Positions 32,756 through 47,976 of a stretch of 64,000 bases of DNA are shown here, in pieces (positions within the stretch are counted from its first letter, which is position 1; each line of letters opens with the position of its first letter). Below the pieces are notes generated by a model that was given only the letters and a program-made list of their open reading frames with translations, was not told the origin of the DNA and searched no databases. Location of the stretch: IMG/VR virus record IMGVR_UViG_3300044540_000246; one strand, written 5' to 3'. Position numbers and translations under genes: made by a program. Origin of the DNA: an uncultured virus (IMG/VR IMGVR_UViG_3300044540_000246). Lineage: Duplodnaviria > Heunggongvirae > Uroviricota > Caudoviricetes.

Positions 32756-32812
32756 CCCCACAGACCATCACGGCTCAGGCGCCACACGCCGGCCAGAACA
32801 GGAAGACTCACC

Positions 32813-33046: not shown

Positions 33047-33089
33047 CCCGCCAGCGCTCACGCCAGGACGGGTCAGGCGCACCCATTCT

Positions 33090-33163
33090 GGCGTACTGGC
33101 CGAGCGGTCAGGCAGCGGCCTGCAAAGCCGTCCAGTCCGGTTCGACTCCGGAGTGCGCCTCCA
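33090..33163 (+). tRNA. tRNA-Cys(GCA)
   Basis: GCGGC-CTGCAAA-GCCGT, TCCA. Confidence 0.93.
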
Positions 33164-33164
33164 C

Positions 33165-33240
33165 GCGGATGCTGGGCGACTGGCCGCCCACCTGCCTTCC
33201 AAGCAGGCCCTAGCGGGTTCGAGTCCCGTCATCCGCTCCA
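33165..33240 (+). tRNA. tRNA-Gly(TCC)
   Basis: CCTGC-CTTCCAA-GCAGG, TCCA. Confidence 0.9.
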
Positions 33241-33331
33241 CCCCCGCACCACGCGCAGACCTCCGCGGAACGAGGTTAGGACGGCAACCTGCGCCCCCGC
33301 TCGACAGGGGAACCATGCGAACAGCCCCCAC

Positions 33332-33404
33332 CCCTCCGTAGCTCAGTTGGCAGAGCAGCCGGCTCTTACCCGGCGGGCCGCAGGTTCAAGTCCTGCCGGA
33401 GGGA
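33332..33404 (+). tRNA. tRNA-Lys(CTT)
   Basis: GCCGG-CTCTTAC-CCGGC. Confidence 0.9.
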
Positions 33405-33445
33405 CCGCCGTCGCGGGCGAGTGCGCTCGCCGATGAAAGACGATC

Positions 33446-33940
33446 ATGAAGACGTGCTCGCGATGCCGGCAGGACAAACCGCATTCGGACTTCCACCGAC
33501 ACTCCAGAATGCGAGATGGGCTGCAGCGCCAATGTAAGCAGTGCCGAGTGGAGATTAACCACGCGCACTACCTCAAGACGCGCGAAGCTCACCAAGCCGC
33601 GCGCCGCAGAGCCTCCCTGAAGGTTCGCGGCCGGAACAGGGCCATCGTCATGGAAGCCGCTCGAGATGGATGCGTGGAGTGCGGGGAGAAGGACTTCCGC
33701 GTCCTCGAGTTCGACCACGTGAGAGGCGTCAAGACGGCAGACATCTCGAAGATGATCAGCCACTCGGAGGAGCGACTCAGGGCGGAGCTTACCTTGTGCG
33801 AAGTACGATGCGCCAACTGCCACCGCCGTAAGACCGCCGAGAGAGCCGGCTGGTACAGGAACTGGACCGTAGGGGTCGAGGCGTTCGTTCCCTCCGATGG
33901 CAGTTCCACGCGATCACCCAACGTAGACGAGACGGGCTGA
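33446..33940 (+). CDS. HNH endonuclease with N-terminal Zn ribbon
   Basis: MKTCSRC...CKQC; CVECGE...LEFDHV...CANCHR. Confidence 0.9.
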   Translation: MKTCSRCRQDKPHSDFHRHSRMRDGLQRQCKQCRVEINHAHYLKTREAHQAARRRASLKVRGRNRAIVMEAARDGCVECGEKDFRVLEFDHVRGVKTADISKMISHSEERLRAELTLCEVRCANCHRRKTAERAGWYRNWTVGVEAFVPSDGSSTRSPNVDETG

Positions 33941-34010
33941 GAGCGGTCGATAGCTAGTAAGCCAGTTCTCCAGGCTGGCGGCGAGAGTTCGAATCTCGTC
34001 TTGTTGTTCC
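33941..34010 (+). pseudogene. Degenerate tRNA remnant
   Basis: Anticodon-like hairpin CCAGT-TCTCCAG-GCTGG and GAGTTCGAATCTC T-arm; no intact acceptor stem. Confidence 0.45.
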
Positions 34011-34039
34011 ACGCCATCTAGGGCCCCTGGGCGGCGCAT

Positions 34040-34115
34040 GCGGTCGTAGCTCAACTGGTAGAGCGTCGCCTTGCCATGGCGAAGGTTGCGGGTTCGAGTC
34101 CCGTCGACCGCTCCA
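34040..34115 (+). tRNA. tRNA-Gly(GCC)
   Basis: Canonical, loop TTGCCAT, CCA. Confidence 0.95.
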
Positions 34116-34174
34116 CGCCCTCCGCGGCCAAGCGGAGCGGTGACCGGTGCGGGATGCCCCTCGCGCCGCAACAT

Positions 34175-34247
34175 GCGGGCGTAGCTCAGCTGGCAGAGCG
34201 CGACCTTCCCAAGGTCGATGTCGCGAGTTCGACTCTCGTCGCCCGCT
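34175..34247 (+). tRNA. tRNA-Gly(CCC)
   Basis: Canonical, loop TTCCCAA. Confidence 0.95.
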
Positions 34248-34421
34248 CGCCCCGTGGCAGGTATCCGAGCACCTCAAGACCTCGGGATGCGTCACCCCGG
34301 CAGTCACGGGGTCATCAGCGGTCTGATGTAGCCATTGGAGCAGCTCGCCGGGCGGAGTACCGGAAGGAGCGCAGTGAGCGGCCGAGCAGGAGAGAGGGAG
34401 CCGACCTCGAGACCTGCGCAT

Positions 34422-34495
34422 GCCTCGTTAGCTCAACTGGTAGAGCAGGGAACTCATAGTTCACGGGCTTCCGGGTTCAAATCCCGGGCGGGGTA
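34422..34495 (+). tRNA. tRNA-Met/Ile2(CAT)
   Basis: Loop CTCATAG; Met versus lysidine-Ile not resolved by eye. Confidence 0.85.
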
Positions 34496-34554
34496 CGACG
34501 CCGGCAGCAGGGAACAGTCGGAGCGCACGCTCAGGCTCCTGTTGGTGGCGGCAT

Positions 34555-34631
34555 GCCGGGATAGCTCAGCAGGCCAGAGCGTCCCACTCGTAATGGGAAG
34601 GCCGCCGGTTCGACTCCGGCTCTCGGCTCCA
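34555..34631 (+). tRNA. tRNA-Thr(CGT)
   Basis: TCCCA-CTCGTAA-TGGGA, CCA. Confidence 0.93.
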
Positions 34632-34728
34632 CCCGACGCGCACCCAGGGTGCTGCGTCGGCCACTCTGACCCCACCGTCCGGTCGGAGGTTTCACCACCG
34701 CACGCACCACCGCGGGAGGACGGCACAC

Positions 34729-34811
34729 GTCGATGTGGCGGAATGGCAGACGCGCCAGCTTGAGGTGCTGGTATCTGAAAGGGTGTGAGAGTTCAAATCT
34801 CTCCTTCGACA
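34729..34811 (+). tRNA. tRNA-Leu(GAG)
   Basis: CCAGC-TTGAGGT-GCTGG, class II. Confidence 0.92.
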
Positions 34812-34840
34812 CGTAACACGCTCCGGCCAACGCCGGTATC

Positions 34841-34913
34841 GCCTCCGTAGCTCAGCTGGCAGAGCAGCTGACTTTTAATCAGCGGGTCGCAGGTTCGAAA
34901 CCTGCCGGGGGCA
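34841..34913 (+). tRNA. tRNA-Lys(TTT)
   Basis: GCTGA-CTTTTAA-TCAGC. Confidence 0.95.
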
Positions 34914-34961
34914 CCCCGAACCGATATAGCAACAGCCACGCGCACGGAAGAGAGCTAGTAG

Positions 34962-35126
34962 ATGACATCAGCCAGCCAATACGCCAGCGCTGCGCGGCCG
35001 CGGAAAGTAGCACGATTGACGTTGGCTGATGTTGCGCAGATCGTGTTGATGTTCGCTTTCGACCTCGCCGTCGCCGCCGGATTGTTTGCCGGCCTGGCTG
35101 TCATCGTCGCTACGGTTCTCCCGTGA
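34962..35126 (+). CDS. Small membrane protein inside tRNA array
   Basis: 54-aa ORF with hydrophobic C-half; GTGA overlap with next ORF. Confidence 0.5.
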   Translation: MTSASQYASAARPRKVARLTLADVAQIVLMFAFDLAVAAGLFAGLAVIVATVLP

Positions 35127-35326
35127 CCGGTCCTCGCATCGACGGCCGCACCAAGCACCTCATCTACTGCGAAGATTTCCACGATGCGGCGCGCGTAGCC
35201 GGCGCGATGGACCTGCACCTGAGCGCCTGGTGCTGGATCACCGACGTGAACGCACCCGCCGACCCGGTCGTGTTCACCCGCAACCCGAACCCGACAGCTG
35301 CGGCAGACACCACACTTCCCGCGTAG
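35123..35326 (+). CDS. Small hypothetical protein inside tRNA array
   Basis: 67-aa ORF coupled to the previous one. Confidence 0.55.
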   Translation: MTGPRIDGRTKHLIYCEDFHDAARVAGAMDLHLSAWCWITDVNAPADPVVFTRNPNPTAAADTTLPA

Positions 35327-35344
35327 CACCGCGCGGGACCCCTT

Positions 35345-35430
35345 GGAGAGTGAACCGGGCAGGGTCCCGGGACCGCCTCGAAAGCGGATCGAGCCGGCGA
35401 CGGTTTGGGTTTCGAGTACCTCGCTCTCCG
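35345..35430 (+). tRNA. tRNA-Ser(CGA), 8/4 type
   Basis: 8-bp acceptor GGAGAGTG/CGCTCTCC, 4-bp T-stem, long variable arm. Confidence 0.88.
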
Positions 35431-35437
35431 CGCACCG

Positions 35438-35526
35438 GGAGGATGAACCGACCAGGCGGTCGGGGCCGCCTTGAAAGCGGATCGAGCCGGCAACGGCTTG
35501 GGTTTCGAGTACTCCATCCTCCGCCA
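35438..35526 (+). tRNA. tRNA-Ser(TGA), 8/4 type
   Basis: GGAGGATG/CATCCTCC; loop CTTGAAA; GCCA. Confidence 0.88.
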
Positions 35527-35546
35527 CACCACAGCATCATCCCTTT

Positions 35547-35636
35547 GGAGAGTGAACCGGCCGGGGCGCCGGGCACGCCTGGAAAGCGTTGCGGACCCCA
35601 CGCGGGTCTGGGATTCGAGCTCCTCGCTCTCCGCCA
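35547..35636 (+). tRNA. tRNA-Ser(GGA), 8/4 type
   Basis: Loop CTGGAAA; GCCA. Confidence 0.88.
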
Positions 35637-35651
35637 CAGCATCATCCCTTT

Positions 35652-35738
35652 GGAGAGTGAACCGGCCAGGGTGCCGGCGCTCGTTGCTAGCGAGATGGGT
35701 CCTCCGGGACTGGGTTTCGACTACTCCGCTCTCCACCA
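35652..35738 (+). tRNA. tRNA-Ser(GCT), 8/4 type
   Basis: Loop TTGCTAG; ACCA end. Confidence 0.85.
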
Positions 35739-35836
35739 TGCACGTAGGGCAGGTAGCACGTTCGACTCGTGCGCGGGGGCGGTCCCCTAGACTGGCGGCA
35801 GCCGACCCTGGGAGTTCGACTCTCCAACGTGCAGCA
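35739..35836 (+). ncRNA. tRNA-like RNA with two T-arms and no canonical anticodon arm
   Basis: TGCACGT/ACGTGCA closing stem; GCACG-TTCGACT-CGTGC and GGAG-TTCGACT-CTCC. Confidence 0.55.
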
Positions 35837-35850
35837 GAACCTGGCTCAGC

Positions 35851-36046
35851 TCCCGTAGTGCCAGACGGGACGAGAGTCGCGCGGGCGCGAAGGCACTCCG
35901 CCGCGGTGCGATGCAGCACACCGACCAGCTGCACTGAGGTCGGCGGTCACCTTCCCGAGGCCGGGGAGATGACGCAGGAACACGGCAGTACCCGGCACGA
36001 GTGATGCATCTTCGGACTGCTCAACCCGGCAACCCCGACCGGCCTC
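35851..36046 (+). ncRNA. Candidate structured RNA with three tandem H-type pseudoknots
   Basis: Three stem-loops whose loops have perfect 6-nt downstream complements. Confidence 0.55.
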
Positions 36047-36050
36047 ACTT

Positions 36051-36122
36051 GCCTCGTTAGCTCAGCGGAAGAGCGTCCGGCTTCTAACCGGCGGGCCGCT
36101 GGTTCGACTCCAGCACGGGGCG
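36051..36122 (+). tRNA. tRNA-Arg(TCT)
   Basis: Loop CTTCTAA. Confidence 0.9.
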
Positions 36123-36157
36123 CTGACCGCCAAACGCCATGGGGCGGGCAACAGAAT

Positions 36158-36237
36158 GCGAGCGTATACCCTCACGCTGATAACGTGTCGAAAGGTTAGC
36201 TGGTGGCACGTGAGTTCGAATCTCACCGCTCGCACCA
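36158..36237 (+). tRNA. tRNA-Ile(GAT)-like, rearranged (no 5' D-arm, long segment after anticodon arm)
   Basis: GCGAGCG/CGCTCGC-ACCA; CACG-CTGATAA-CGTG; GTGAG-TTCGAAT-CTCAC. Confidence 0.7.
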
Positions 36238-36361
36238 CTCCGCAGATCCAGCAGTCAGACCACAGCCCCAGCGGAAGGGCAGCATGCAGTGGAGGTCTGA
36301 CCCCTGCGGTGGGCAGGGTCGCGCCAGGGCTCGGCGACAATCGGGCTCCCCACCACCTCAC

Positions 36362-36429
36362 GGGCTGCGCGCAGGGCGCGGGCCTCCCTTGCACGGAGGC
36401 CTTGAAGGGTTCGAGTCCCTTGCGGTCCA
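36362..36429 (+). tRNA. tRNA-Ala(TGC), short D-arm
   Basis: G3:U70 acceptor GGGCTGC/GCGGTCC; CCTCC-CTTGCAC-GGAGG. Confidence 0.7.
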
Positions 36430-36433
36430 CTCC

Positions 36434-36506
36434 GCCCGTGTAGCTCAGCGGAAGAGCTCCCGCCTCCTACGCGGGGAACGCCCCCGTTCGAACCGGGGCA
36501 CGGGCT
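36434..36506 (+). tRNA. tRNA-Arg(CCT)
   Basis: CCCGC-CTCCTAC-GCGGG. Confidence 0.88.
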
Positions 36507-36588
36507 CGAAAGTCGTCATGTCCGCTGCGGAGAAGTCGCCCTCCAGGTCTCGATGAATGCCGGTGCGAACAGGTATCCTGCACGGACG

Positions 36589-37575
36589 ATGATCCGTCAC
36601 CTGCCCACCCTTGCCGCACTGCTCGTCGCAGCCGTGCTGGCTTCTGCCGTGCCCGCGAACGCCGCCGGCGACAGCGGCAGCCGAGAGGGCGATGGCCGTG
36701 AGGGTCGCCCCAGCCCGCTCCTGCCCGGGTGGGCGCTGGACAGCATCGACGGGGCACTCGACGGCCGCTACGTGCTCGACCCGGCTTCGGCCGGGCAGGG
36801 CGTCGCCGTGTACGTCATCGACACCGGCGTCGACGCCAGCAGCACACAGCTCGCCAGACGGGTCTCGGGAGGGGTCTCGCTGCTTCCCGGCTCGGTCGGG
36901 ACGGGCGACTGTAACGGGCACGGCACCCGTGTCGCGCAGGCGATCGCAGGAACTACCGTCGGTGTAGCCCCGGCCGCGACCATCATCCCGGTCCGTGCGT
37001 TCGACTGCGCCGGCCGCGGCGACGGCGCCGGCATCGCGCCCGCCCTGAACTGGATCGTCGACCATCACCCTCCCGGTGAGCCCGGCGTGATCAACGTGTC
37101 CGCCGGCGGGTGGGCCGACCCGACCACCGACGCCGCTGCGCTCGCGGCGGTCCGCGCGGGGCTGGTCGTCGTCGTATCCGCCGGGAACACCGGCGGGGAC
37201 GCGTGCGACCGATCCCCTGCTCGCGTCCCCGCAGTCATTACTGTCGCCGCCGCTACGCCAGCAGGCGCTTACGCCGACTCCGCGACCGGCCGGTGCGTCG
37301 ACCTGTGGGCGCCGGGCGCGTCAGTCATCACCACGACCGACGCCGGCTACCGGCTTAGCTCCGGAACCAGTCTCGCGGCTGCATTCGTTGCAGGCGCGGC
37401 AGCTCGCTACCTGTCGGCGGACCCGGCGGCCTCCCCTGCCGACGTCGGCCGATGGCTGACCGACCAGGCGACGGCAGCGAGCGGGCCGACGGTCCCCGGC
37501 ACCGTCACTGCGACGCTGCAGCTCCCGGCAACGATCGCGCCCGTCCGCCACGACGTGCCCCGCGCTCGAATGTAG
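36589..37575 (+). CDS. Secreted S8 subtilisin-like serine protease
   Basis: Signal peptide; VIDTGV, NGHGT, SAGN, SGTSLA triad motifs. Confidence 0.92.
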   Translation: MIRHLPTLAALLVAAVLASAVPANAAGDSGSREGDGREGRPSPLLPGWALDSIDGALDGRYVLDPASAGQGVAVYVIDTGVDASSTQLARRVSGGVSLLPGSVGTGDCNGHGTRVAQAIAGTTVGVAPAATIIPVRAFDCAGRGDGAGIAPALNWIVDHHPPGEPGVINVSAGGWADPTTDAAALAAVRAGLVVVVSAGNTGGDACDRSPARVPAVITVAAATPAGAYADSATGRCVDLWAPGASVITTTDAGYRLSSGTSLAAAFVAGAAARYLSADPAASPADVGRWLTDQATAASGPTVPGTVTATLQLPATIAPVRHDVPRARM

Positions 37576-37703
37576 CGGCGCCTGCCGAGCGCGTCACGGG
37601 CATGCGACGCAGTGGCGGCGGCACAACTTCCGTCAGCCGATGTCGGCTCTGAGCAATAAAGTGAACCTGTACGCGCTTCGCGCGTCGGAACAGAAGAAGG
37701 ACC

Positions 37704-38585
37704 ATGAACGACACGCGCACCGCACTCCTCCCCACTGAGGCTATGCCGCGTCGTGTCGCGTTCGCCGGCGACTGGCACGGCAACACCATGTGGGCGCTCC
37801 ACTGCCTGCGCGAGCTCGCCGCCGCCGGCATTGACCGCATCTACCATGTCGGCGACTTCGGCCTGTGGCCCGGCGAGTCCGGCGCAGCATTCCTCCGCAA
37901 GGTCGACGCGCACGCCACCCGCTACGGCATCACCATCGACGTCACCCTCGGCAACCACGACGACTACGACCGGTTCGCGCAGCTTCGCGCCGACGAGGAC
38001 GGCTGGCTGCGAACCAAGCACACCCCCGCACTCCGGTTCGCTCCCCGCGGCCACACATGGGAGGACCACGGAGTCCGGTTCGCGTCCCTCGGCGGCGCCG
38101 GCAGCATCGACCGGAACCTCCGCACCGCCGGCCGCGACTGGTGGCCCGACGAAGCGATCGGTCGCGACGACGTCCGGACCCTCGCCGCCAACGTGACTGC
38201 GCGAGGCTGGGACCGAGTCGACGTCCTCATCACCCACGAAGCACCCGCCGGCCTGACCCGCCGCGGGTTCGCCGTCATGCCCCGCTGGGCAACCCCCGAC
38301 GTTCAGCAGTACTGCTGGGAGCAACGAGTCCGACTCCGCCACGCAACCGACCTGGTGATGCCGCACACCCTCGTCCACGGCCACTGGCACGAATGGCACC
38401 ACGACGAGCTCCACGGTGTCGGCCCCGGCGACTCAGGCGCAGAGTACGTCACCGACGTGTTCTCCCTGTCCGCCGACGGCGACGTCCGCAACCTCATCAC
38501 CGCTGAGCTCATCCCGTACGTCGGCGTGACCGACCCGCAGCTGCCGCTCATCTCGAGCGGCCGCGCCGCCCGCCGAACCGCATGA
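37704..38585 (+). CDS. Calcineurin-like metallophosphoesterase
   Basis: GDWHG, VGDFG, GNHD, THEAP, HGHWH. Confidence 0.92.
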   Translation: MNDTRTALLPTEAMPRRVAFAGDWHGNTMWALHCLRELAAAGIDRIYHVGDFGLWPGESGAAFLRKVDAHATRYGITIDVTLGNHDDYDRFAQLRADEDGWLRTKHTPALRFAPRGHTWEDHGVRFASLGGAGSIDRNLRTAGRDWWPDEAIGRDDVRTLAANVTARGWDRVDVLITHEAPAGLTRRGFAVMPRWATPDVQQYCWEQRVRLRHATDLVMPHTLVHGHWHEWHHDELHGVGPGDSGAEYVTDVFSLSADGDVRNLITAELIPYVGVTDPQLPLISSGRAARRTA

Positions 38586-39085
38586 CGACCGGCCAAACGG
38601 GCAGCGCCGACCGCCTCATGGACCTCGTCTGCGGCAGCGACCCCGCCGACCTTGCCGTCGTCGTCCAACGCGGTGACCTGCGGACCGAGCACCTCGAAGC
38701 CCTCGCCGAACGCATCGTGTCTACCTGGGCCACGGTCGACGCCACCGAAGGCGCCTACATCTGGCTCGCCGGCAGCCGGCTCACCCAACGCGGGAGCCTA
38801 CCCCCAGCCGCCATCGAGACCCTCGCCCGGCACCCCGACCCGAGCATCCGCGCCCGCATCGCCGACCGACCCGACCTGCCGGGAGCGCTCGCTCGCCAGC
38901 TCGCAGGCGACGACGACCCGAAGGTCGCCCGCTACATCGCCAACAACGCCGCCGTCGCCGAAGAGATCCGCATCCTCGCCGCCCTAAACGCAGCCAGCGG
39001 CGACAGACCCCGAGCCGGGACGCCATCAGGGGCACCTGCAACGCCGAGGCGCGCGCACCCACAGCCGACCGGAAATCAACCATGA
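38582..39085 (+). CDS. LRV/HEAT-like repeat protein
   Basis: LARHPDPSIRARIA, IANNAAVAEEIRILAAL. Confidence 0.7.
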   Translation: MTTGQTGSADRLMDLVCGSDPADLAVVVQRGDLRTEHLEALAERIVSTWATVDATEGAYIWLAGSRLTQRGSLPPAAIETLARHPDPSIRARIADRPDLPGALARQLAGDDDPKVARYIANNAAVAEEIRILAALNAASGDRPRAGTPSGAPATPRRAHPQPTGNQP

Positions 39086-39201
39086 CCATCAACCATGACC
39101 CGGATGACGCCCGCAACCTCATAGCCGCCGTACTCATCCCCTACGTCGGCGTGACCAACCCGCGGCCGCCCCTCCTCGCCCCTCCCGCGAAAGATCGATA
39201 G
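39082..39201 (+). pseudogene. Duplicated C-terminal fragment of the metallophosphoesterase gene
   Basis: DDARNLIAAVLIPYVGVTNPRPPL matches GDVRNLITAELIPYVGVTDPQLPL (about 38478-38550). Confidence 0.65.
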
Positions 39202-39203
39202 GC

Positions 39204-39659
39204 ATGCTCCGCCGCGCGCTCGACGCCCTACTCGCCCGCCCGCCCGCAGAGCAGGAGGGGGACTGGCTGTCGCCCCTCATCCGAACGGCGCCCTTCGCCG
39301 ACCTGGTTGAATGCGCCAACCGGGACGACCTCGAGCCCCACCACTACATCCTGCTCGCCGAGCGTTTCGCGACCCAACGAGCCGAAAGCGAAACGGAGAC
39401 CTACGAGGGCTGGTACTTCGCGATGCTGCTCCTCGACGACCCGAAGACCCCCGAAGAAGCGCTCCGCACCATCGCCAAGCGCGCCGACAGCACCCTCCTG
39501 CTCATGCTCGCCGGACGGAACGACATCCCCGACGACCTCGCCCTCGAGCTCGCCGCGCACCCCCTCTACGCCATCCCGGCCGCGATCGTCGCGAACCCGG
39601 CAACCAGCGACGACGCACGAACCATCGCCACCCTCAACCTCGGCGCCAACCAAACGTAA
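39204..39659 (+). CDS. LRV/HEAT-like repeat protein, paralog of 38582-39085
   Basis: DLEPHH..LAER; IVANPATSDDARTIATL. Confidence 0.7.
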   Translation: MLRRALDALLARPPAEQEGDWLSPLIRTAPFADLVECANRDDLEPHHYILLAERFATQRAESETETYEGWYFAMLLLDDPKTPEEALRTIAKRADSTLLLMLAGRNDIPDDLALELAAHPLYAIPAAIVANPATSDDARTIATLNLGANQT

Positions 39660-39925
39660 GAGCACATGAGGGCAGGTCCCCAGCAGAAAGCCACTCGGGG
39701 CACCACAGCGTTCGCCGACCGCATCGAGACGGAAGCGCGCGCCAACGACGCCGGCAAGAACTCCAGCCAGATGCGCCGCGCGCCGAACATGCGAAGCTGA
39801 TACCGGACATGACCGAGCGCCTCACCGAAGCGACCCCGGCCGCCACCAACCCAGCCCTCGGACGTGCCAACTCAACCCAGCTGCGCACGTCCGACGACAC
39901 GGCCTAAACTCGCAGGAACACAAGC

Positions 39926-40205
39926 CGTACAGGTGTGCTATACTCGTACCAGAGGCGAATGTGACGGGCCACCCGCAACAGACGCCGATAGAGCACCAGC
40001 ACATCAGCACCCCGAACCGCAGGAAAGGAGAACCGAGATGACCGAACGCTACGCCCACGTCATCCCGGCCTTCGTCGATCCTGCGCACGAGTGGCCCTAC
40101 TCGGCCGTCCCGAACGGGAGCTGCATGTGAAAGCCTGACCACCAGGCTCACCATGAAGCCGCCTCGCACGGGACCACACCCCGAGCAGGCGGCTTCAGTC
40201 GTTTC
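39926..40205 (+). promoter_or_regulatory. tRNA block 2 leader: promoter, 30-aa leader ORF (40038-40130), terminator hairpin (40154-40197)
   Basis: CGTACAGG-N5-TATACT; AAAGGAG RBS; TGAAGCCGCCT...AGGCGGCTTCA-GTCGTTT. Confidence 0.7.
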
Positions 40206-40226
40206 CGGACCACAACACAACAACGA

Positions 40227-40311
40227 ATGGGCGTCGCGTAGCGGCTATCGCAGCGGTCTCCAAAACCGCCGACCTAGGTCACCGTGGGTTCGAGTCCCAC
40301 CGCCCATGCCA
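40227..40311 (+). tRNA. tRNA-Trp(CCA) with long variable arm
   Basis: GCGGT-CTCCAAA-ACCGC; variable GACC-TA-GGTC; GCCA. Confidence 0.85.
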
Positions 40312-40336
40312 CACAACTAAACACGCACCACCACCC

Positions 40337-40413
40337 GCCGTGAGCGCTGGGACGCAAGGGAGGCTGTAACCCTCTCCCCACTGGGTAGACGAGTTCGATT
40401 CTCGGGCACGGCA
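40337..40413 (+). tRNA. tRNA-Tyr(GTA), short atypical D-arm
   Basis: GGAGG-CTGTAAC-CCTCT; variable arm; GAGTTCGATTCTC. Confidence 0.65.
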
Positions 40414-40434
40414 CGCACCACAACACAACACCGA

Positions 40435-40509
40435 CTGGCTGTAGCTCAGAGGAAGAGCGCCCACCTTGGGAGTGGGAGGCCCCCGACTCGAACTCGGGCA
40501 GCCGGACCA
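40435..40509 (+). tRNA. tRNA-Pro(TGG)
   Basis: CCCAC-CTTGGGA-GTGGG; atypical T-loop CTCGAAC. Confidence 0.82.
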
Positions 40510-40538
40510 CCCCCGAATGGGACATAACTCAACAACGA

Positions 40539-40612
40539 CTGGCTGTAGCTCAGCAGGAAGAGCGCTAGCTCGGGGAGCTAGAGGCCCGGCGGTTCGAGCC
40601 CGCCCAGCCAGA
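40539..40612 (+). tRNA. tRNA-Pro(GGG)
   Basis: CTAGC-TCGGGGA-GCTAG. Confidence 0.88.
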
Positions 40613-40645
40613 CGCACCACCAACAACTCAACACGCACCACATGA

Positions 40646-40721
40646 CCGGGTGTGGGGAAGCTTGGCCATCCCGCCTGCCTCGGACGCAGGAGTATCGCAG
40701 GTTCAAATCCTGCCATCCGGA
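40646..40721 (+). tRNA. tRNA-Pro(CGG)
   Basis: CCTGC-CTCGGAC-GCAGG. Confidence 0.9.
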
Positions 40722-40762
40722 CTCAACAACTCAACAATGAATAGCGCGCAACGCGCACGCAT

Positions 40763-40840
40763 GGTGGCCGTAGCTCAGATGGTTAGAGCGTCCGACTGTG
40801 ACTCGGAAGGTCGCGAGTTCGAGCCTCGTCGGTCACCCCA
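40763..40840 (+). tRNA. tRNA-His(GTG)
   Basis: G-1:C73, loop CTGTGAC, CCA. Confidence 0.95.
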
Positions 40841-40841
40841 T

Positions 40842-40914
40842 GCCCCCATCGTTTAGAGGCCAAGGACACCGCCCTTTCACGGCGGCGGCGCCGGTTCGAA
40901 TCCGGCTGGGGGTA
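40842..40914 (+). tRNA. tRNA-Glu(TTC)
   Basis: CCGCC-CTTTCAC-GGCGG. Confidence 0.93.
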
Positions 40915-40939
40915 CGAACAACTCAATAGTGAATGTCTT

Positions 40940-41013
40940 GGTCCCGTGGAGCAGTTGGAGTGCTCGCCACCCTGTCACGGTGGAGGTCGCCGGTTCGAGT
41001 CCGGTCGGGATCG
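40940..41013 (+). tRNA. tRNA-Asp(GTC)
   Basis: CCACC-CTGTCAC-GGTGG. Confidence 0.95.
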
Positions 41014-41044
41014 CAAGGCTCTTGGCAGGCGTGCTGGGAGCTCA

Positions 41045-41228
41045 GAGCAGAGACGCAAGGACGGTGGTCGCGCGACCGTCCGGCTCCTCCGGGGGTCGTG
41101 GTGTAAGGCGCTGGTCGAGGACGACGCATCCTCGGCCTGGCGGCACGGCGCCTCTGTTCGAAACCAAATTCTCAGGTAGGTGTGAGTAGAGATGCATTCC
41201 TGAGAAAGCGGGCGGTGGCTACTCACAC
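41045..41228 (+). ncRNA. Candidate structured RNA: multibranch domain plus strong pseudoknot
   Basis: GAGCAGAGACGC/GCGCCTCTGTTC closing helix; TTCTCAGG/CCTGAGAA crossed with GTGTGAGTAG/CTACTCACAC. Confidence 0.6.
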
Positions 41229-41242
41229 GCGGTTCGCGCTTT

Positions 41243-41313
41243 GGTTCGTTAGCTCAGCGGTAGAGCGCTCCCCCGTCAAGGGAGAGGTCGCGGGTTCGAG
41301 CCCCGTACGGATC
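41243..41313 (+). tRNA. tRNA-Asp(GTC), second divergent copy (C at position 33)
   Basis: CTCCC-CCGTCAA-GGGAG. Confidence 0.85.
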
Positions 41314-41397
41314 GCGCTCCATCCCGGCTGCGGATAGTGGGCGTGTCTCAGTTTCGAGGCGCGCCAGAAGGAGGGATGACTCTCGCGCAGCCGCTTT

Positions 41398-41474
41398 GCC
41401 CCCTTGGTCTAGTGGTCTACGACGCCCGGTTCTCAGCCGGGAGGTCACCGGTTCAAATCCGGTAGGGGGTACCA
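41398..41474 (+). tRNA. tRNA-Glu(CTC)
   Basis: CCCGG-TTCTCAG-CCGGG, CCA. Confidence 0.92.
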
Positions 41475-41484
41475 CTTGTGGCGA

Positions 41485-43386
41485 TCAGGCTTGCTCGTCT
41501 TCGTTTCCGGCCGGCGGGGTGAGCTGTTCGAGGGTGAGCCCGTATGCTGCGGCGATGAGGGCGTCGCGCTCTTGGCTGGTGCCTGCTTCGCGCAGCGCCG
41601 CGATCTGGTCGTTGGTGAGCTCGGGGATGGTGAAGCTGCCGATCTGCGGCTTCTGGTAGGCGAAGTAGCCGCCGTTGATCGGCGTGGATGTGTGGGTGAC
41701 GTAGAACCGGCATGCGGATGAGTTCAGGAACCAGCCGAGCACGTCGGCGGAGATCTGTCGTGGTGCGATTGCGACTCCGTTGATGAACAGGCTGTCCGGG
41801 TCGTCGTCACGGAGGAACCGAGGCGTCTTGGCGTACATGGGGGTGAGTAGCGTCGTTCCGAGCGGGGCGAGGGACTGCGTCCGGGCGTATGCGTACCAGG
41901 CCGCGTAGGTCTTCTTCCCCTTATCGCGGTCGGCGAGCTCATCGCGGCATGCGGTCAGGTATGCGTACGCGTTCGGGTACAGGTTCTGCAGGGTCGCTTC
42001 GTCGAGGATGACGGGGCCGGCGTCGGTGAGCTCGTACGGATACACGATTCGGGTCTGGTCCGTGTCGAGCTGCGCTTGGCTGGTCAGTCCGGCTACTTTC
42101 ACGCACCGGCGGGTGATGCCAGCTTCGAGGGCGTACGTGACTCCGTCGCGGACCTTGATGTAGGTGCCGTCCGGGTTGCGGGCGCCGTCGAGGAGGTAGA
42201 CGTCGTTGAGGTTGGTTGTGACGCCGTAGCGGATGTCAGCGAGGGCGGTGAGGGGCGTGTGCGCGGATAGCGCTGCGAGTGCGGCGGCGGCTGATGGCCC
42301 GGCGAGCCGCCACGGCTTCCCGTCCGGGAGGTCCGAGACGTGGTACGTCTGGGTCCGCGACGTCGCCCAGTTCGCGGGGAGGGTTGCTAGGTCAGGTAGT
42401 CCGGCGACATCGGCGTACCGCAGCTCGCCCTCTTCTCTGGCCTCGGGCGCTGCGAGGAATGTGACCGCCGTGTACGTCATCGCGTCGAACACTCGATGGT
42501 GGCCGAAGTCGACGATGTCGCGGACAGCGTCTGCGGTCTTCATCCAGCTGCGGAGACCCGACGCGGCGAACCCGCCCAGCCACGAGTTCGGGGTAATGAG
42601 TGCGACCTGTCCGCCGTCGGCTGCGGCCGCGTAGGCGAGAGGAAAGAACGGAAAGTACAGGTTGAAGTTGCCCGACCCGCACACGGCCGGGAATAGGCGC
42701 GCGAGACGAGCACGCTCGTCGACGGGCAGCTGTTGGTAGCGGACGTAGGGAGGGTTGCCGACGACGAGATCGAATCGGCGTTCGTGGGCGACGGTCAAGG
42801 CGTCGCCGACGGTGAGGTGCGGTGCGGGGATGACGGGGTCGCCGAGGGTCAAGCACATCAGCTCGAGCAAGGTCCGCGCCCGCCGGACCGAACCGGGTGA
42901 GATGTCGACGCCGTGGAGGCGGTTCGCGACTTCGTGCGGACGCTGCCCGGTCGCTGCGGTGAGCTGGGTGAGTGCCGCGGCGAGGATCGCGCCGGCGCCG
43001 ACGGTCGGGTCCAGGACGGTCACGTCCGCCAGGTCCCGTCCGGGGTTCGTCGCCGACCATCGGTGGACCGCTTCGCTGACAAGGAACGCGGTCACGGGCG
43101 CGGGGGTGAACACGGCACCGTACCTGGCTGCTTCGTTCGCCGGGACGAGCGTCTCGAACGCCATCACGACACCGTCGACCTCCCACGCTTCGACCGCCGA
43201 GAACGCAGCAGTTAGCTGTGGGTTCGCGGCGCTGACCGCGGCATGTACGGCGCCGCCGGGGGTCGGCGTGAGGCCGTGCGCAGCGCACCAGGCGGCGACG
43301 AGCGCCGCCTCTACTGCGTCGATCGGGCGACCGTCTGCGAGCAGCGCGCGCGTCGCCGAAAGCGGGGAAGCGGTCGCGCGAGTCAC
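41485..43386 (-). CDS. N6-adenine DNA methyltransferase (Eco57I/TaqI-like) with target recognition domain
   Basis: GAVFTP, LDPTVGAG, VGNPPYVR, WYAYARTQ. Confidence 0.9.
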   Translation of the reverse strand: MTRATASPLSATRALLADGRPIDAVEAALVAAWCAAHGLTPTPGGAVHAAVSAANPQLTAAFSAVEAWEVDGVVMAFETLVPANEAARYGAVFTPAPVTAFLVSEAVHRWSATNPGRDLADVTVLDPTVGAGAILAAALTQLTAATGQRPHEVANRLHGVDISPGSVRRARTLLELMCLTLGDPVIPAPHLTVGDALTVAHERRFDLVVGNPPYVRYQQLPVDERARLARLFPAVCGSGNFNLYFPFFPLAYAAAADGGQVALITPNSWLGGFAASGLRSWMKTADAVRDIVDFGHHRVFDAMTYTAVTFLAAPEAREEGELRYADVAGLPDLATLPANWATSRTQTYHVSDLPDGKPWRLAGPSAAAALAALSAHTPLTALADIRYGVTTNLNDVYLLDGARNPDGTYIKVRDGVTYALEAGITRRCVKVAGLTSQAQLDTDQTRIVYPYELTDAGPVILDEATLQNLYPNAYAYLTACRDELADRDKGKKTYAAWYAYARTQSLAPLGTTLLTPMYAKTPRFLRDDDPDSLFINGVAIAPRQISADVLGWFLNSSACRFYVTHTSTPINGGYFAYQKPQIGSFTIPELTNDQIAALREAGTSQERDALIAAAYGLTLEQLTPPAGNEDEQA

Positions 43387-43540
43387 GACCAGTCGTATCG
43401 GGGCCCTGCACGCCTCGTAGAGCGCCTGGCGCGCTCGCCCCCGCCTCAGCCCCGCGACGCCGCCGAAGGTCCGTTAGAGCATCGTCAGCGGCCCGCCAGA
43501 GCCGCATCCAGCCCCTCCGACAACAGGAAGCAGGCCATCC

Positions 43541-44116
43541 ATGGGCGCGACCCGCCACATCCAAGGCCCGGACGGGAAGATGGCCGGCTCGATCGGCGCC
43601 GGCAAGGACGGGGCACCCGTCTCGATGGACACGGCGGTTCTGCGCCACGTTCTGGACACCAGCGGCCTGAACCGCCGCGCCGCGGTCACCCTCAACGAGC
43701 TATATGAAGCCTACGTGGCGGAGGAAGCCCGGGTCGCCGTTCTCGAAGCCGCCCGAGCTGCCGAATCCGAGGCTGCTGAACGCGCCCGAACCGGGAGGGA
43801 AGCATTCTGGGCTGCGTTCACGCCCACACCCGGCACCCGCATCCCGCCGACGTACGAGTCCCACGAGCACTTGCCGATCGGGACAATCGTCAAGCTCGTC
43901 GAAGCAAACGCGGACAAGTACTGGAACGGAACCGCCCATGTGAAGACCGGCCCGTCGACGTGGGGCCTGCTCGCCCGGGGGCGTGTCGACGAGCTGCTTG
44001 ACGGCGACGTTGAAGACGCCATGGGGTTGGTCGCCCGCCGGGTAAACAATGTCTCCCCGTGCCCGTCCCGCCGGGACGGCGAATGGCAGATCCTCGCAGT
44101 CGTCCCCGAGCGCTGA
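43541..44116 (+). CDS. Hypothetical protein with N-terminal GKMAGS peptide
   Basis: 191-aa ORF, AGGAAG RBS region. Confidence 0.7.
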   Translation: MGATRHIQGPDGKMAGSIGAGKDGAPVSMDTAVLRHVLDTSGLNRRAAVTLNELYEAYVAEEARVAVLEAARAAESEAAERARTGREAFWAAFTPTPGTRIPPTYESHEHLPIGTIVKLVEANADKYWNGTAHVKTGPSTWGLLARGRVDELLDGDVEDAMGLVARRVNNVSPCPSRRDGEWQILAVVPER

Positions 44117-44146
44117 TCGGCTCCGGCATGGTTCGGGGCTTCAGTC

Positions 44147-45292
44147 CTACTTTCGGCGCCGGACCGTCAGCTTCGGAACCGTGGGGACCGGCGCGGTCGG
44201 AGTGTCGGTCAAGGCGGCGGCGATCTTCTCGGAGTCGCGCAGCAGCGACCCGGCGAGCAGTAGAGGCTGGGTCGCGTCGAGGTCCTTCACCTGAGCTGTC
44301 GCGCTGGCGTGCGCTTCGGCGAGGTTGAGCGCTTTCGTTGTCGTGTCGTCCAGTGGCGCGGCCGGCGCGGTCTCCGCGGAGACAGCTTGTCCGGTCAGCG
44401 CGGTCGCGGTCGCGGACAGGACCTGAGCGAGGCCGGAAGCAACGGTTTGAGGTAGACCGGCGACGTTCTTCTCAGCTGCGACCAGTAGGTCGCGAGCGAT
44501 GCTGTACGACGTCCGCGCAGCGACCTGCGCGACCTGAACCTGCGCAACAACCGCCGCAGCCTCCTCCTGGTCGACGAGCGGCGACCACAACGACGAACGC
44601 AACGCCGACTCGGCCCTGTCGCGCACGTCTGCGAGAGACCGCATGAGCTTCTCCGCCCGTTCGACCCACCCTCGAGCTCGCGTCTCGTCGAGCGCGTCAC
44701 CGGCATGCAGCGCCTCGGAGATCTCTTCAAGTAACTGCGCGGCATCTCGTGACGCCGTCACCGCTGCGGTCAGGGCACGTCGGTGCGGTTTGCCAGGTAG
44801 GACCCACAACGAAGCGACAACCGCGACTGCGGCACCGACCAGCGCGCCAAGGAAACGGGTCTCCACTAGCTCGGGGTCGAACGTCGGGCCGACGACCAGG
44901 ATGACTGTCACGCCCATCGCGGCGGCGCCCTCCTCTCCGAGGCGCAGCAGCCGCGCGAGAGCGAAGCTCGCCGCCACCAGAACCAAGATGACCCACGGCG
45001 AGTATCCGAAATGCACCGTCAGAATCATTCCCAGTGCGGCGCCCAGCAGGACTCCGACGACCTGCCGCGACGACTCCGCAGCGGTCTCGTGAAACGTCGG
45101 CCGGATCGAAACCAGCGCAATGATCGCTGCGACGGCGGAGTTCACATGCTCGAACGGCTCCGCGATCGCGTACGCGGCGGCGGCCGCGACGCTCGACCAC
45201 GCTGCCAGACGTAAGTAGGGCCGCCGCATCCACTGGCGGGCGCCGTCGACAGGGCGGCGAACCCAGGAGTGTCTAGGGGTTGAGGTTGTCAT
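44147..45292 (-). CDS. FUSC/aromatic-acid-exporter family membrane protein
   Basis: AAIIALVSIRPT...RQVVGVLLG; TM bundle then helical domain. Confidence 0.82.
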   Translation of the reverse strand: MTTSTPRHSWVRRPVDGARQWMRRPYLRLAAWSSVAAAAAYAIAEPFEHVNSAVAAIIALVSIRPTFHETAAESSRQVVGVLLGAALGMILTVHFGYSPWVILVLVAASFALARLLRLGEEGAAAMGVTVILVVGPTFDPELVETRFLGALVGAAVAVVASLWVLPGKPHRRALTAAVTASRDAAQLLEEISEALHAGDALDETRARGWVERAEKLMRSLADVRDRAESALRSSLWSPLVDQEEAAAVVAQVQVAQVAARTSYSIARDLLVAAEKNVAGLPQTVASGLAQVLSATATALTGQAVSAETAPAAPLDDTTTKALNLAEAHASATAQVKDLDATQPLLLAGSLLRDSEKIAAALTDTPTAPVPTVPKLTVRRRK

Positions 45293-45447: not shown

Positions 45448-47976
45448 ATGACCTGGAACGAGCGTGCGACCCGGATCGCTTCCCGGCGTGCCGCCCGCAA
45501 AGCCTCCCACCATGTGGCGGCCGTCCGTGCCGCCGGCGGCGAGCTCGCGGACCTACCCAGGCGTGAGCTCAATGCTCGCGCCGCCGCCCTCCGCACCCAA
45601 CTCGCAGCCGGAACCACCGTCGACGAGCTCCTCCCGCAGCTGCTCGCCCTCGCCGCAGAAGCGTCCACTCGAACTCTGAGTCTGACCCCGTACGACGAGC
45701 AAATCCTCGCCGCGGCCCTCCTGCATGGCGGCGCCATCGCGGAGATGAAGACCGGTGAGGGGAAGACCCTCGCCGCCGGCCTCGCCGCAGCCGCGAACGC
45801 ACTCGCCGGCGTCGGAGTCCACGTCATCACCGCGAACGACTACCTCGCCGCACGCGACGCCGTCACGCTACGACCGCTGTACGATCTGCTGGGCCTCACC
45901 GTCGCCGTCCTCACCCCCGGCGAACCAGACACCGACCGGCGCGCCGCGTACACCGCCGACATCACCTACGGCACCCAGGGGCAGTTCGGCCTGGACTACC
46001 TGCGTGACCGGTGCGTCCTCCGCCTTGACCAGCGACTCCAGCGGCCACTGCACTACGCGATCGTTGACGAAGCCGACTCGGTCCTCATCGACGGAGCACG
46101 TTCCCCCTACCAGCTCACCGGACCGTCCGACCTGCCCGACATCGACTACGGCATGTACGCCGGCATTGCCGCGACTCTCGACCGAGCCCTGCACGTAGAC
46201 ATCGACGACAAGACCCAGGCTCTGACGTTCACCGAGGACGGCATCACCCATCTCGAGCAGCAGCTCAGCGTCGACAACCTCTACGACATCGACCACGCCC
46301 ACCACCTGCGGTTCCTGACCAACGCAGCGACCGCGCAGCTGCTGTTCATTCGCGACCGCGACTACCTCGCCACCGACACCGACATCATTCCGATCGACCC
46401 GTTGACCGGCCGCCCAGGCCGCGGACGTCTCGGCAGCGGCCTACACCAGGCGCTCGAAGCGAAAGAAGGCCTCCCCGTCCGGCCGGAGACTGAACCGTAC
46501 GCGTCGATGAGTCCGCAGGACTTCTTCTCCTGCTACCCGAAGCTCGCAGGCACTACCGGCACCGCACTCGGCGACGCGGACGAGTTCTCCCGCATGTACC
46601 GCCTCGACGTCGCCGCAGTCCCCACCCACCGGCCCATGATCCGCACCGACCGAACCGACCTGGTGTACGCGACCACGCGCGCGAAGTTCGCCGCCGTCCT
46701 CGACGACATCGCTACCAGGCACGCCGCCGGGCAGCCGGTCCTGGTCGGCACGACCAGCGTCGCGAAGAGCGAGTACCTATCCCGCCAGCTGACCGAGCGC
46801 GGCATCACGCACGACGTCCTCAACGCCAAGAACCACGCCCGCGAAGCCGACATCATCGCCGACGCTGGCCGGCACGGGAAGGTCACCATCGCCACGTCGA
46901 TGGCCGGCCGCGGCGTCGACATCCTCCTCGGCGGCGACCCCTCCCGCCGAGCCCGGACGATGCTCACCGAAGCAGGCCTCGACCCCGACACCCTTCCCGA
47001 CGACGCACCCGAACGGACCGGCATCGAAGTTATCGCCCGGGCCGCTTGCGCCGACGAGCGAGAGAAAGTCATCGCCGCCGGCGGCCTTTACGTCCTCGGC
47101 ACCGAAAGGCACGACGCACGCCGCATCGACGACCAGCTCCGCGGCCGAGCCGGACGGCAGGGGGACCCCGGCGAGTCCCGGTTCTACGTAGCCCTCGACG
47201 ACGACATGATGCGCGCGTTCGGCAACGCCCGCCTGCTCGCGAAGGCCCTGACGACGCTGCAGACCAGTGACGAGGCCCGCCCGCTCGAATCGCCGGCCAT
47301 CGCCCGGACCATCGCCGCAGCCCAGAATGAGATCGAAGCCGCAGCCCGCAAGTCCCGCGCGTCAATGGTCGCGTTCGACCAGGTCCTGGCCACCCAGCGC
47401 GACCTCATCTACGGCACCCGCGAGCAGCTCCTCACCGCCGACCTCGACGGCCTGCGCGACGCGTGGAAGCAGATGCTGACCCGCGCCCTGGCCGCGCACC
47501 TCAACACCGCCGACCTCGACGACGACACGCAGGTCCTCGCCGGCGCGGCAGAGCTGTACCCGTCGACCCTGACCTCGGTCCACGTCGAAGCAGCCCGCGC
47601 CGCAACCCGCCGCACCGAGCAGCGCCGAGACCTTCTCGTCGACCTGTTCATCGACGATGCCGAGCAGCTCCTCGACCAGCGCTTCGCCGCCCTGGACCTC
47701 AATGAGCACGCGCAGGCAGCATTCCTGCGCCGCGCCCTGCTGCTGGCGATCGACCGCCGCTGGCACCGCCACCTCGACGAGATGCGGCAGCTGCGCGACG
47801 GCATCAGCCTCCGGTCCTACGCGAAACGGTCCCCGATCGCGGACTACAGCCGTGAGGGGTTCGACGCGTTCGTTGCGATGACCGACACTGCCGCAGCCGA
47901 CGGAGCCGCCGCCCCGTTCCAGCTCGCTCCCGCCCAAGCTCCGGCGCCCGCCATGCCGGCCGAGGCGACCGTCTGA
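45448..47976 (+). CDS. secA: Preprotein translocase ATPase SecA (divergent)
   Basis: EMKTGEGKT, IVDEADSVLID, GLHQALEAKE, MAGRGVDI, QLRGRAGRQGDPG. Confidence 0.95.
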   Translation: MTWNERATRIASRRAARKASHHVAAVRAAGGELADLPRRELNARAAALRTQLAAGTTVDELLPQLLALAAEASTRTLSLTPYDEQILAAALLHGGAIAEMKTGEGKTLAAGLAAAANALAGVGVHVITANDYLAARDAVTLRPLYDLLGLTVAVLTPGEPDTDRRAAYTADITYGTQGQFGLDYLRDRCVLRLDQRLQRPLHYAIVDEADSVLIDGARSPYQLTGPSDLPDIDYGMYAGIAATLDRALHVDIDDKTQALTFTEDGITHLEQQLSVDNLYDIDHAHHLRFLTNAATAQLLFIRDRDYLATDTDIIPIDPLTGRPGRGRLGSGLHQALEAKEGLPVRPETEPYASMSPQDFFSCYPKLAGTTGTALGDADEFSRMYRLDVAAVPTHRPMIRTDRTDLVYATTRAKFAAVLDDIATRHAAGQPVLVGTTSVAKSEYLSRQLTERGITHDVLNAKNHAREADIIADAGRHGKVTIATSMAGRGVDILLGGDPSRRARTMLTEAGLDPDTLPDDAPERTGIEVIARAACADEREKVIAAGGLYVLGTERHDARRIDDQLRGRAGRQGDPGESRFYVALDDDMMRAFGNARLLAKALTTLQTSDEARPLESPAIARTIAAAQNEIEAAARKSRASMVAFDQVLATQRDLIYGTREQLLTADLDGLRDAWKQMLTRALAAHLNTADLDDDTQVLAGAAELYPSTLTSVHVEAARAATRRTEQRRDLLVDLFIDDAEQLLDQRFAALDLNEHAQAAFLRRALLLAIDRRWHRHLDEMRQLRDGISLRSYAKRSPIADYSREGFDAFVAMTDTAAADGAAAPFQLAPAQAPAPAMPAEATV

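Follow-up and report, generated by a model that had tools for sequence, protein, structure and literature searches.

The 64,000-nucleotide stretch analysed here (IMG/VR record IMGVR_UViG_3300044540_000246; hereafter the window, meaning the whole stretch) has a GC content of 68% and looks like a phage genome. Within its array of tRNA genes, two tRNA-Asp(GTC) genes are separated by a spacer of 228 nt (41015-41242) that folds strongly on the + strand, the coding strand of both tRNAs, and not on the opposite one. We put at about an even chance the reading that this spacer is a structured passenger or spacer RNA of the phage tRNA operon, of the same kind as T4 rnaC and rnaD, which would be cut free by tRNA processing. 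As far as similarity searches can tell, it belongs to no known family and is an orphan. The equivalent position in the arrays of distant relatives holds what appears to be an RNA family of ~245 nt, pseudoknotted, supported by covariation and absent from Rfam (four loci tested). The spacer and its two flanking genes are composed as follows.

40940-41014, + strand: tRNA-Asp(GTC) number 1 (ARAGORN; Rfam tRNA, 56.2 bits)
41017-41042, + strand: H0, an 11-bp hairpin with G-U pairs that begins 2 nt past tRNA-Asp number 1 (minimum free energy, MFE, fold)
41045-41159, + strand: multibranch domain of 115 nt with three hairpins (MFE fold, identical to the centroid)
41160-41168, + strand: A/C-rich linker GAAACCAAA, single-stranded, that is, unpaired in the MFE fold (sequence and fold)
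41169-41206, + strand: S1 hairpin, 8 perfect bp with a 22-nt loop (inverted-repeat search)
41180-41228, + strand: S2, 10 perfect bp, with its 5' arm in the S1 loop and crossing S1 (inverted-repeat search)
41229-41242, + strand: 3' tail GCGGTTCGCGCTTT, a small GC hairpin and then CTTT abutting the next tRNA (sequence)
41243-41315, + strand: tRNA-Asp(GTC) number 2 (ARAGORN; Rfam tRNA, 60.3 bits)

ARAGORN and Rfam agree on the two tRNA-Asp genes between which the original prediction, made by reading the sequence alone, had placed an elaborate RNA. By blastn, the first of them shares 86% identity with its tRNA-Asp counterparts in Microbacterium phage A3Wally and Mycobacterium phage Tonenili. CCA is encoded in neither gene, and in number 1 the discriminator G is followed by CAA. 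The end of the spacer tail resembles the leader of tRNA-Glu(CTC), which also terminates in ...GCTTT. No tRNA, tmRNA or tRNA-like gene was called within 41015-41242 by ARAGORN or the tRNA-clan models of Rfam. The only open reading frame (ORF) lying entirely within the spacer (41042-41197, - strand, 51 aa) has a GC content at third codon positions (GC3) of 0.65, below that of the window ORFs accepted as genes (at least 0.75, mostly 0.8-0.9), and we thus regard the spacer as non-coding. Its 3' part, with S1 and S2, has a GC content of 0.53-0.55 compared with 0.65-0.72 in the neighbouring sequence, and is indeed more AT-rich than its surroundings, as had been noticed.

The folding of the spacer is markedly strand-specific. 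On the + strand the whole spacer reaches -108.5 kcal/mol (z -3.10, equalled or bettered by none of 200 shuffles), against -77.4 kcal/mol on the - strand (z -0.53, equalled or bettered by 62 of 200), and a second, independent shuffling gave z values of -3.34 and -0.66, respectively. Every sub-part folds better on the + strand except 41169-41228, whose helices are all Watson-Crick; the asymmetry is attributable to G-U pairs, as expected under selection on RNA structure. The H0 hairpin, which the original prediction lacked, has pair probabilities of 0.68-1.0, and the sub-region containing it (41015-41044) gives z -2.9 on the + strand and -1.1 on the - strand. The next domain had been described as a helix (41045-41056/41148-41159) enclosing several hairpins, and in the MFE fold this helix does close three of them (41059-41081, 41082-41097 and 41101-41146). 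It is nevertheless imperfect, its 12 positions comprising 10 Watson-Crick pairs, one G-U pair and one A-C mismatch, and it forms as 8+3 pairs with probabilities of 0.58-0.91 (domain z -3.19 on the + strand, -1.51 on the - strand).

Downstream of the linker, direct reading of the sequence and the inverted-repeat search both recover the two perfect, crossing helices that first drew attention to this locus. The arms of S1, TTCTCAGG (41169-41176) and CCTGAGAA (41199-41206), are 100% complementary over 8 bp, and those of S2, GTGTGAGTAG (41180-41189) and CTACTCACAC (41219-41228), over 10 bp. The arms interleave in the order S1-5', S2-5', S1-3', S2-3' with connectors of 3, 9 and 12 nt, so that, if both helices form together, only a pseudoknot is possible; by modelling, S2 would either join S1 in a pseudoknot or belong to an alternative fold. 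Taken alone, S1 is worth -9.9 kcal/mol (pair probability 0.66-0.93) and S2 -14.0 kcal/mol, while in the nested ensemble S1 has a probability of ~0.9 and S2 of ~0.07. Over 41160-41242, the S1-containing MFE fold (-27.6 kcal/mol) and the fold with S2 forced (-25.1 kcal/mol) differ by 2.5 kcal/mol, values that allow, in the model, a pseudoknot, a switch, or S1 alone.

The near equality of these two nested energies, together with the lower GC of the 3' part, would suit a regulatory or punctuation element between transcription units, whether an S1/S2 switch, a terminator, a processing stalk or an AT-richer 3' promoter for the Asp-Glu genes. We find this hard to credit, given that the surroundings hold no promoter-like or + strand terminator-like site, that no T-run follows either helix (except the CTTT abutting the tRNA), and that the arms of S1 and S2 do not overlap and so are not mutually exclusive by sequence. 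The interleaved arms invite a further comparison. HDV-like ribozymes are nested double pseudoknots in which P1 and P2 cross and P3-L3, of ~13 nt, lies between P2-5' and P1-3'; the order of the S1 and S2 arms is that of P1 and P2, while the 9 nt between S2-5' and S1-3' leave no room for P3/L3. An extract of PMC10879173 describes HDV-like theta ribozymes next to phage tRNAs, with the cleavage site adjoining the tRNA, and the spacer resembles these in its crossing two-helix topology and in its vicinity to phage tRNA genes. It differs from them in that the putative cleavage site, 41169, lies 154 nt from the upstream tRNA, the element abutting no tRNA end, and in that no Rfam ribozyme model, HDV-like or other, matches at E <=10. 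A self-cleaving ribozyme of this type aiding tRNA maturation is therefore extremely improbable.

The branching out of the comparison to cultured relatives provides additional clues. Six Microbacterium phages of 186-195 kb (A3Wally, Big4, Zooman, Cece, Pumpernickel and a sixth) share the local tRNA order of the window: theirs reads Pro, Pro, Pro, His, Met, Asp, a gap of ~246 nt, Asp, Glu(CTC), Glu(TTC), and that of the window Pro, Pro, Pro, His, Glu(TTC), Asp, 228 nt, Asp, Glu(CTC). The six gaps align with one another, and RNAalifold on these six sequences gives 72 pairs, 21 of them with compensatory changes. No Rfam family matches the Microbacterium gaps at E <=1 in the four loci tested. Small coding sequences are annotated over the RNA in Big4 and in the sixth phage; the same frame is broken by stops in A3Wally, Cece and Pumpernickel, and hence this is not a conserved coding region. 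The RNA is unannotated in four of the six and in the Streptomyces phage WRightOn, where a 244-nt gap, at record positions 17341-17584, follows tRNA-Asp in an otherwise tight cassette. Covariance models were built for single domains (R2 for the central domain, R1 and R3 for the 3' domain; E-values are rough), and in the WRightOn gap R2 scores 39.9 bits (E 3e-7) and R3 78 bits (E 4e-21). The arrays of the cultured phages Tonenili, Trina and Sixama have neither the slot nor the family RNA.

Members share two UUAGCGG motifs (CUUAGCGG and GCUUAGCGGC.AAC) in addition to GGCAA.UGCUGAGG. In IMG/VR, 116 stretches fitted a two-motif pattern; 80 of these were fetched, and most are chance matches. Since the motif served to retrieve them, its invariance among the IMG/VR members is partly by construction. 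The central-domain model recognises 12 IMG/VR loci at E <=5e-4 and four more weakly. In 12 of the 16 loci scanned, two tRNA or tRNA-like genes of the same strand flank the RNA, which occupies a gap of ~243-350 nt (mostly 243-270), and in IMG/VR the slot varies, following Asp, Leu, Glu, Gln, Trp or Ala. The members are located as follows.

L227:2579-2824: family member in a cultured phage (A3Wally)
L228:666-912: family member in a cultured phage
L229:1274-1519: family member in a cultured phage
L230:1532-1771: family member in a cultured phage
L231:601-846: family member in a cultured phage (Zooman)
L232:677-922: family member in a cultured phage
L357:2888-3131: family member in a cultured phage
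L271, L315, L282, L292, L290, L249, L272, L276, L237, L275, L242 and L257, each at ~1063-1310: family members in IMG/VR

Strong covariation supports the proposed structure, with the proviso that both alignments were fitted to the model, a procedure that favours it. In the 3' domain (14 sequences), 10 of 12 pairs show changes on both sides, and the share of paired cells is 97.0%, compared with 46-58% when partners are slid; in the central domain (16 sequences, 15 distinct), 22 of 31 pairs do so, and the share of paired cells is 90.5%, compared with 35-55%. A closing helix, P1, of the GGAGAG/CUCUC type, in which GAGUA/UACUC covaries to GAGAG/CUCUC, connects the 3' end with the 5' end, just past a hairpin P0. 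P7, the penultimate hairpin, has a loop complementary to hairpin P2 further upstream. A perfect complement of 5-6 nt exists in each of the 14 members examined; in 11 of them the best one lies at nt 45-50, in the P2 apical loop, and eight sequence versions occur overall. Singly, each match is unremarkable (8-64 of 200 shuffled loops reach it), and it is the constant place and the co-change that support a P7-P2 pseudoknot. Other long gene-free gaps occur in related arrays, namely L231:381-600, L271:1847-2112 and L275:2032-2276, the first being an extra 220 nt of Zooman between tRNA-Asp and the family RNA. As a separate observation, the deposited annotation of A3Wally (record 83225-83707) labels the gtc tRNAs as Val and one ctc tRNA as Leu; by anticodon these are Asp and Glu.

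How, then, might the spacer of the window be used? Its position mid-array on a single strand, the lack of a promoter- or terminator-like site, the strand-specific fold and the presence of an RNA gene in the equivalent slot of relatives together favour a transcribed and processed RNA. We infer that the spacer would be co-transcribed on the + strand within a long tRNA precursor and would fold there into compact, stable modules: H0, the three-hairpin domain, and the S1 hairpin, either on its own or knotted with S2. RNase P, cutting at the 5' end of tRNA-Asp number 2 (41243), would set the 3' end of the spacer RNA, and tRNA-Asp number 1 would be trimmed at its 3' end before CCA is added by the phage-encoded enzyme. 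The product would be a folded RNA of ~228 nt that survives, or that merely insulates or punctuates the precursor. Its most likely role would be local, allowing the neighbouring tRNA-Asp precursors to fold independently, with stable ends resisting exonucleases; a trans-acting role of the released RNA is possible. Thus, of the suggestion that this is a functional non-coding RNA or a processing element, the transcribed and processed part is favoured by the setting, while function and pseudoknot are unproven.

Phage T4 offers the closest parallel. Its rnaC and rnaD (species 1 and 2) are small stable RNAs of ~120-140 nt encoded in the tRNA gene cluster, and the position of the spacer within the array is consistent with a passenger RNA of this type. 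In both cases a structured RNA that is neither tRNA nor coding lies among same-strand phage tRNA genes and is presumed to be freed by the enzymes that trim tRNAs. The window RNA is longer, at ~228 nt against ~120-140 nt, and the two are likened by position and kind, not by sequence or fold. The array of Tonenili, with a tmRNA between tRNAs, gives another example of a non-tRNA RNA in such a setting. Larger RNAs are also found in this context: an extract of PMC12286853 states that GOLLD and ROOL are often encoded near tRNA islands, and Morgado and Vicente, in an extract of PMC5966550, report a structured RNA of ~430 nt in about 81% of Mycobacterium tRNA arrays. GOLLD and ROOL resemble the spacer in being, according to the former extract, phage-borne structured RNAs near tRNA islands; they differ in being much larger (~580 to >800 nt), and their Rfam models miss both the window (gathering thresholds) and 40900-41500 (E <=10).

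The kinship to GOLLD or ROOL raised at the outset, and a match to the ribozyme models named with them, accordingly find no backing in Rfam. With Rfam 15 at gathering thresholds, the whole window yields tRNAs only, with no GOLLD, ROOL, raiA or OLE; at E <=10, the region 40900-41500 has no GOLLD, ROOL, raiA, tmRNA, Y-RNA-like or ribozyme match. The sole match touching the spacer at this level is dauA (15.9 bits, E 9.5, - strand), which is not meaningful. Searches by nucleotide similarity were equally negative. Three queries (40900-41500, 36500-44400 and the spacer by itself), compared by blastn with 50,697 phage records, returned tRNA matches or chance matches of 19-30 nt, and a blastn search of plasmids gave tRNA matches only; an exact 21-mer from the pseudoknot has no match in IMG/VR, and the best blastn match of the spacer among 351 loci has an E-value of 0.1 over 55 nt. 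In a sample of 401 actinomycete genomes, 106 gave BLAST matches of ~20-83 nt, most below 60 nt and none full-length (best 43.7 bits), which is chance level; three unpublished genomes in this sample support no claim made here.

Neighbouring genes led to no closer relative. A search with SecA in genome contigs gave at least 600 matches, the best 80 at 37-47% identity, and brought up no relative; in IMG/VR it gave 25 loci at 32-46% identity. The adjacent methylase as a single query found no loci in IMG/VR; an alignment of 24 methylase homologues found 80 metagenome and 38 IMG/VR loci, and the 12 best of the metagenome loci contain no tRNA genes and hence no synteny. DnaE found two IMG/VR loci, in records without tRNAs, and a pattern from the 3' half of tRNA-Asp found one unrelated single tRNA in IMG/VR. 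Overall, the neighbour-gene searches (SecA, methylase, DnaE) retrieved proteins of at most 50% identity with no shared tRNA context. Five DNA sequencing runs contain the stretch itself or part of it: three, from freshwater, cover it completely and may be its source, and two have a small share; none of the runs listed as containing it is an RNA run. Near-identical 151-nt pieces over 41100-41335 in the two small-share freshwater runs represent the same strain, and the contigs of four runs contain no diverged copy of the spacer, nor is any variant listed within it.

Several of our own results weigh against a dedicated passenger RNA. No homologue of the spacer was found in cultured phages, IMG/VR, the fetched loci or the 401 actinomycete genomes; the pseudoknot is thus without covariation support, and conservation of sequence or fold is not indicated. 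Strong folding is not peculiar to this spacer, as 6 of the 16 array spacers of at least 52 nt reach z <=-3 on the + strand, and others with z of -6.5, -4.9, -3.6 and -3.5 fold as strongly. The array at large is therefore marked by strong, strand-specific folding, which is not confined to this spacer, and the structure may stem from something common to these GC-rich spacers. Chance can also produce the crossing repeats. In 60 simulations of the 64-kb window under a first-order Markov model (perfect 8 and 10 bp, loops <=40 nt), 0.117 crossing 8+10 pairs are expected per window, and at least one occurred in 5 of the 60; the real window holds exactly one. By themselves the repeats would be weak evidence for a pseudoknot, and the nested alternatives are at least as stable as any fold containing S2. 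The putative pseudoknot, which rests on two perfect repeats that chance can produce, is thus unproven.

The same observations would be expected if the spacer were a neutral junction, the leftover of joined tRNA modules (…His-Glu-Asp + Asp-Glu) that is transcribed and discarded, with hairpins arising from GC-richness and a general pressure for compact spacers, and with coincidental repeats. With no more than 78% agreement between their 3' halves, the two tRNA-Asp genes are not recent duplicates, and the 11 nt at 41230-41240 match tRNA-Asp number 2 at its 3' end and in its trailer, a hint of duplicated junk. Composition alone would hardly give a strand asymmetry of ~31 kcal/mol, however, and the spacer is among the longest gene-free gaps of this tight sub-array, where the others measure 1-123 nt; distant relatives, moreover, hold a real RNA gene in the same slot. 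We consider a neutral origin possible but doubtful.

The correspondence of slots raises the question of whether the spacer is itself a member of the ~245-nt family. Both lie after tRNA-Asp in a syntenic sub-array (Pro-Pro-Pro-His-x-Asp-[gap]-Asp-Glu(CTC)) and between same-strand tRNA genes, and their lengths are similar, 228 nt compared with ~246 nt in the Microbacterium phages and gaps of ~240-270 nt in the family. Both begin with a hairpin directly after the upstream tRNA, both end a few bases before the next one, and both have near the 3' end a hairpin whose loop joins a pseudoknot, a putative one in the window. By eye, a likeness without statistics, both also start with CAA after the discriminator, followed by the hairpin; both have a hairpin of 7-8 bp with a loop of 20-25 nt ~60-75 nt before the next tRNA; and in both a 3' CUACUCAC pairs with an upstream GAGUA(G).

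The remaining comparisons run the other way, and they too count against reading the spacer as an RNA gene akin to that of its relatives. An nhmmer search with the six-phage alignment has no match in the spacer. Nor do R1, R2 and R3 find anything in it at E <=10 when all of the window is searched with filters off; restricted to 41000-41260, the best scores are 2.0 and 2.4 bits. The same models do detect a member with 68% GC, that of the Streptomyces podophage WRightOn, at 39.9 and 78 bits, which serves as a positive control. Neither UUAGCGG motif occurs in 41015-41242, nor does the GGCAA...CUGAGG motif. The window sequences corresponding to P1, GAGUAG and CUACUC, have the 5' partner in the S1 loop (41184-41189) and not after H0, and the window would pair its hairpin loop with the 3' tail, whereas the family pairs the P7 loop with the P2 loop. 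That the spacer is a highly diverged member, whose long-range closing helix has been re-wired into a local pseudoknot, is thus improbable.

In an alternative scenario, the gap after tRNA-Asp in these actinobacteriophage arrays might represent a conserved docking slot, of which the 228-nt and ~245-nt RNAs would be unrelated or unrecognisably diverged occupants doing the same job, with the S1/S2 pseudoknot real and selected. Both RNAs would then be built on a 3' hairpin with its loop locked in a pseudoknot, and the job could lie in tRNA metabolism during infection, the RNA serving, for instance, host anticodon nucleases or the phage's repair and CCA enzymes as a decoy or scaffold. We put this forward as an unlikely reading, beside the passenger RNA that we favour.

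The genomic context of the spacer is that of a phage rich in tRNA functions. By ARAGORN the array comprises 35 tRNA genes from 30886 to 41474, every one on the + strand, and Rfam confirms 30 of the 35 at threshold. No sigma-70-like promoter was found in 39600-41800. An intrinsic terminator is rejected as well, since 39600-41800 has no + strand site with a GC-rich hairpin followed by a T-run. Upstream of the array lies a tRNA repair and maturation module (18073-24594), which suggests a counter-measure against host anticodon nucleases:

18073-19269, - strand: T4-type RNA ligase
20249-21589, - strand: polynucleotide kinase-phosphatase (PNKP)
21634-22458, - strand: RlaP
22912-24594, + strand: CCA-adding enzyme with an HD domain

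Further genes of the window encode SAM synthetase, DUF4192, RNase HII, HNH endonucleases, RecX, a Clp ATPase and two DNA methylases. The nearest cultured relatives of the DnaE-type polymerase and of the metallophosphoesterase are phages of Saccharomonospora, Streptomyces, Rhodococcus, Microbacterium and Mycobacterium, at 30-48% identity. The full-length SecA matches a PHROG of unknown function, and two large proteins have a prepilin-type N-terminal methylation motif, one of them with RCC1 repeats; the coordinates of the three are given jointly as 45448-47976, 7590-9266 and 27433-29556.

The array itself has other peculiarities. An HNH homing-type endonuclease gene (33446-33940) is located inside it, between tRNA-Lys and tRNA-Gly. 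Stretches resembling a T-arm, GGTTCGA(A/T)TCC, occur in the gaps 30963-31076, 31151-31388, 33407-34039, 36124-36361 and 40312-40434, the first of which also has an apparent acceptor stem and a CAT anticodon loop; these gaps may hold unusual tRNAs or tRNA remnants overlooked by ARAGORN and Rfam. Two tRNAs of 87-91 nt with an Asn anticodon (GTT) and a long variable arm, at 31910-32000 and 32216-32302, are called by ARAGORN and not at the Rfam gathering threshold, and no Ser, Tyr or Ile tRNA is called in the array. Among the array spacers, z values on the + strand are -6.5 at 31542-31629, -4.9 at 34497-34554, -3.5 at 32439-32511 and -3.0 at 34116-34174. In the last sub-array, an A/C-rich leader motif, AACAACTCAA, is repeated exactly three times within 300 nt (40622-40631, 40725-40734 and 40917-40926); allowing at most one mismatch, the window has four matches where 0.61 are expected. 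The motif also lies beside tRNAs in A3Wally (L227:2900-2909), in another Microbacterium phage (L232:998-1007) and in an IMG/VR array (L315:2191-2200), and may represent a shared processing or promoter signal.

Gaps in phage tRNA arrays are usually annotated as empty, and the present analysis lends further support to the view that they can hold RNA genes released by ordinary tRNA trimming. The spacer RNA of the window would be an orphan of moderate interest, of a kind already seen in other phages. What can be tested in cultured, published phages is the unannotated ~245-nt RNA of the Microbacterium jumbo phages and WRightOn; the function of this passenger RNA would bear on whether the spacer of the window matters.

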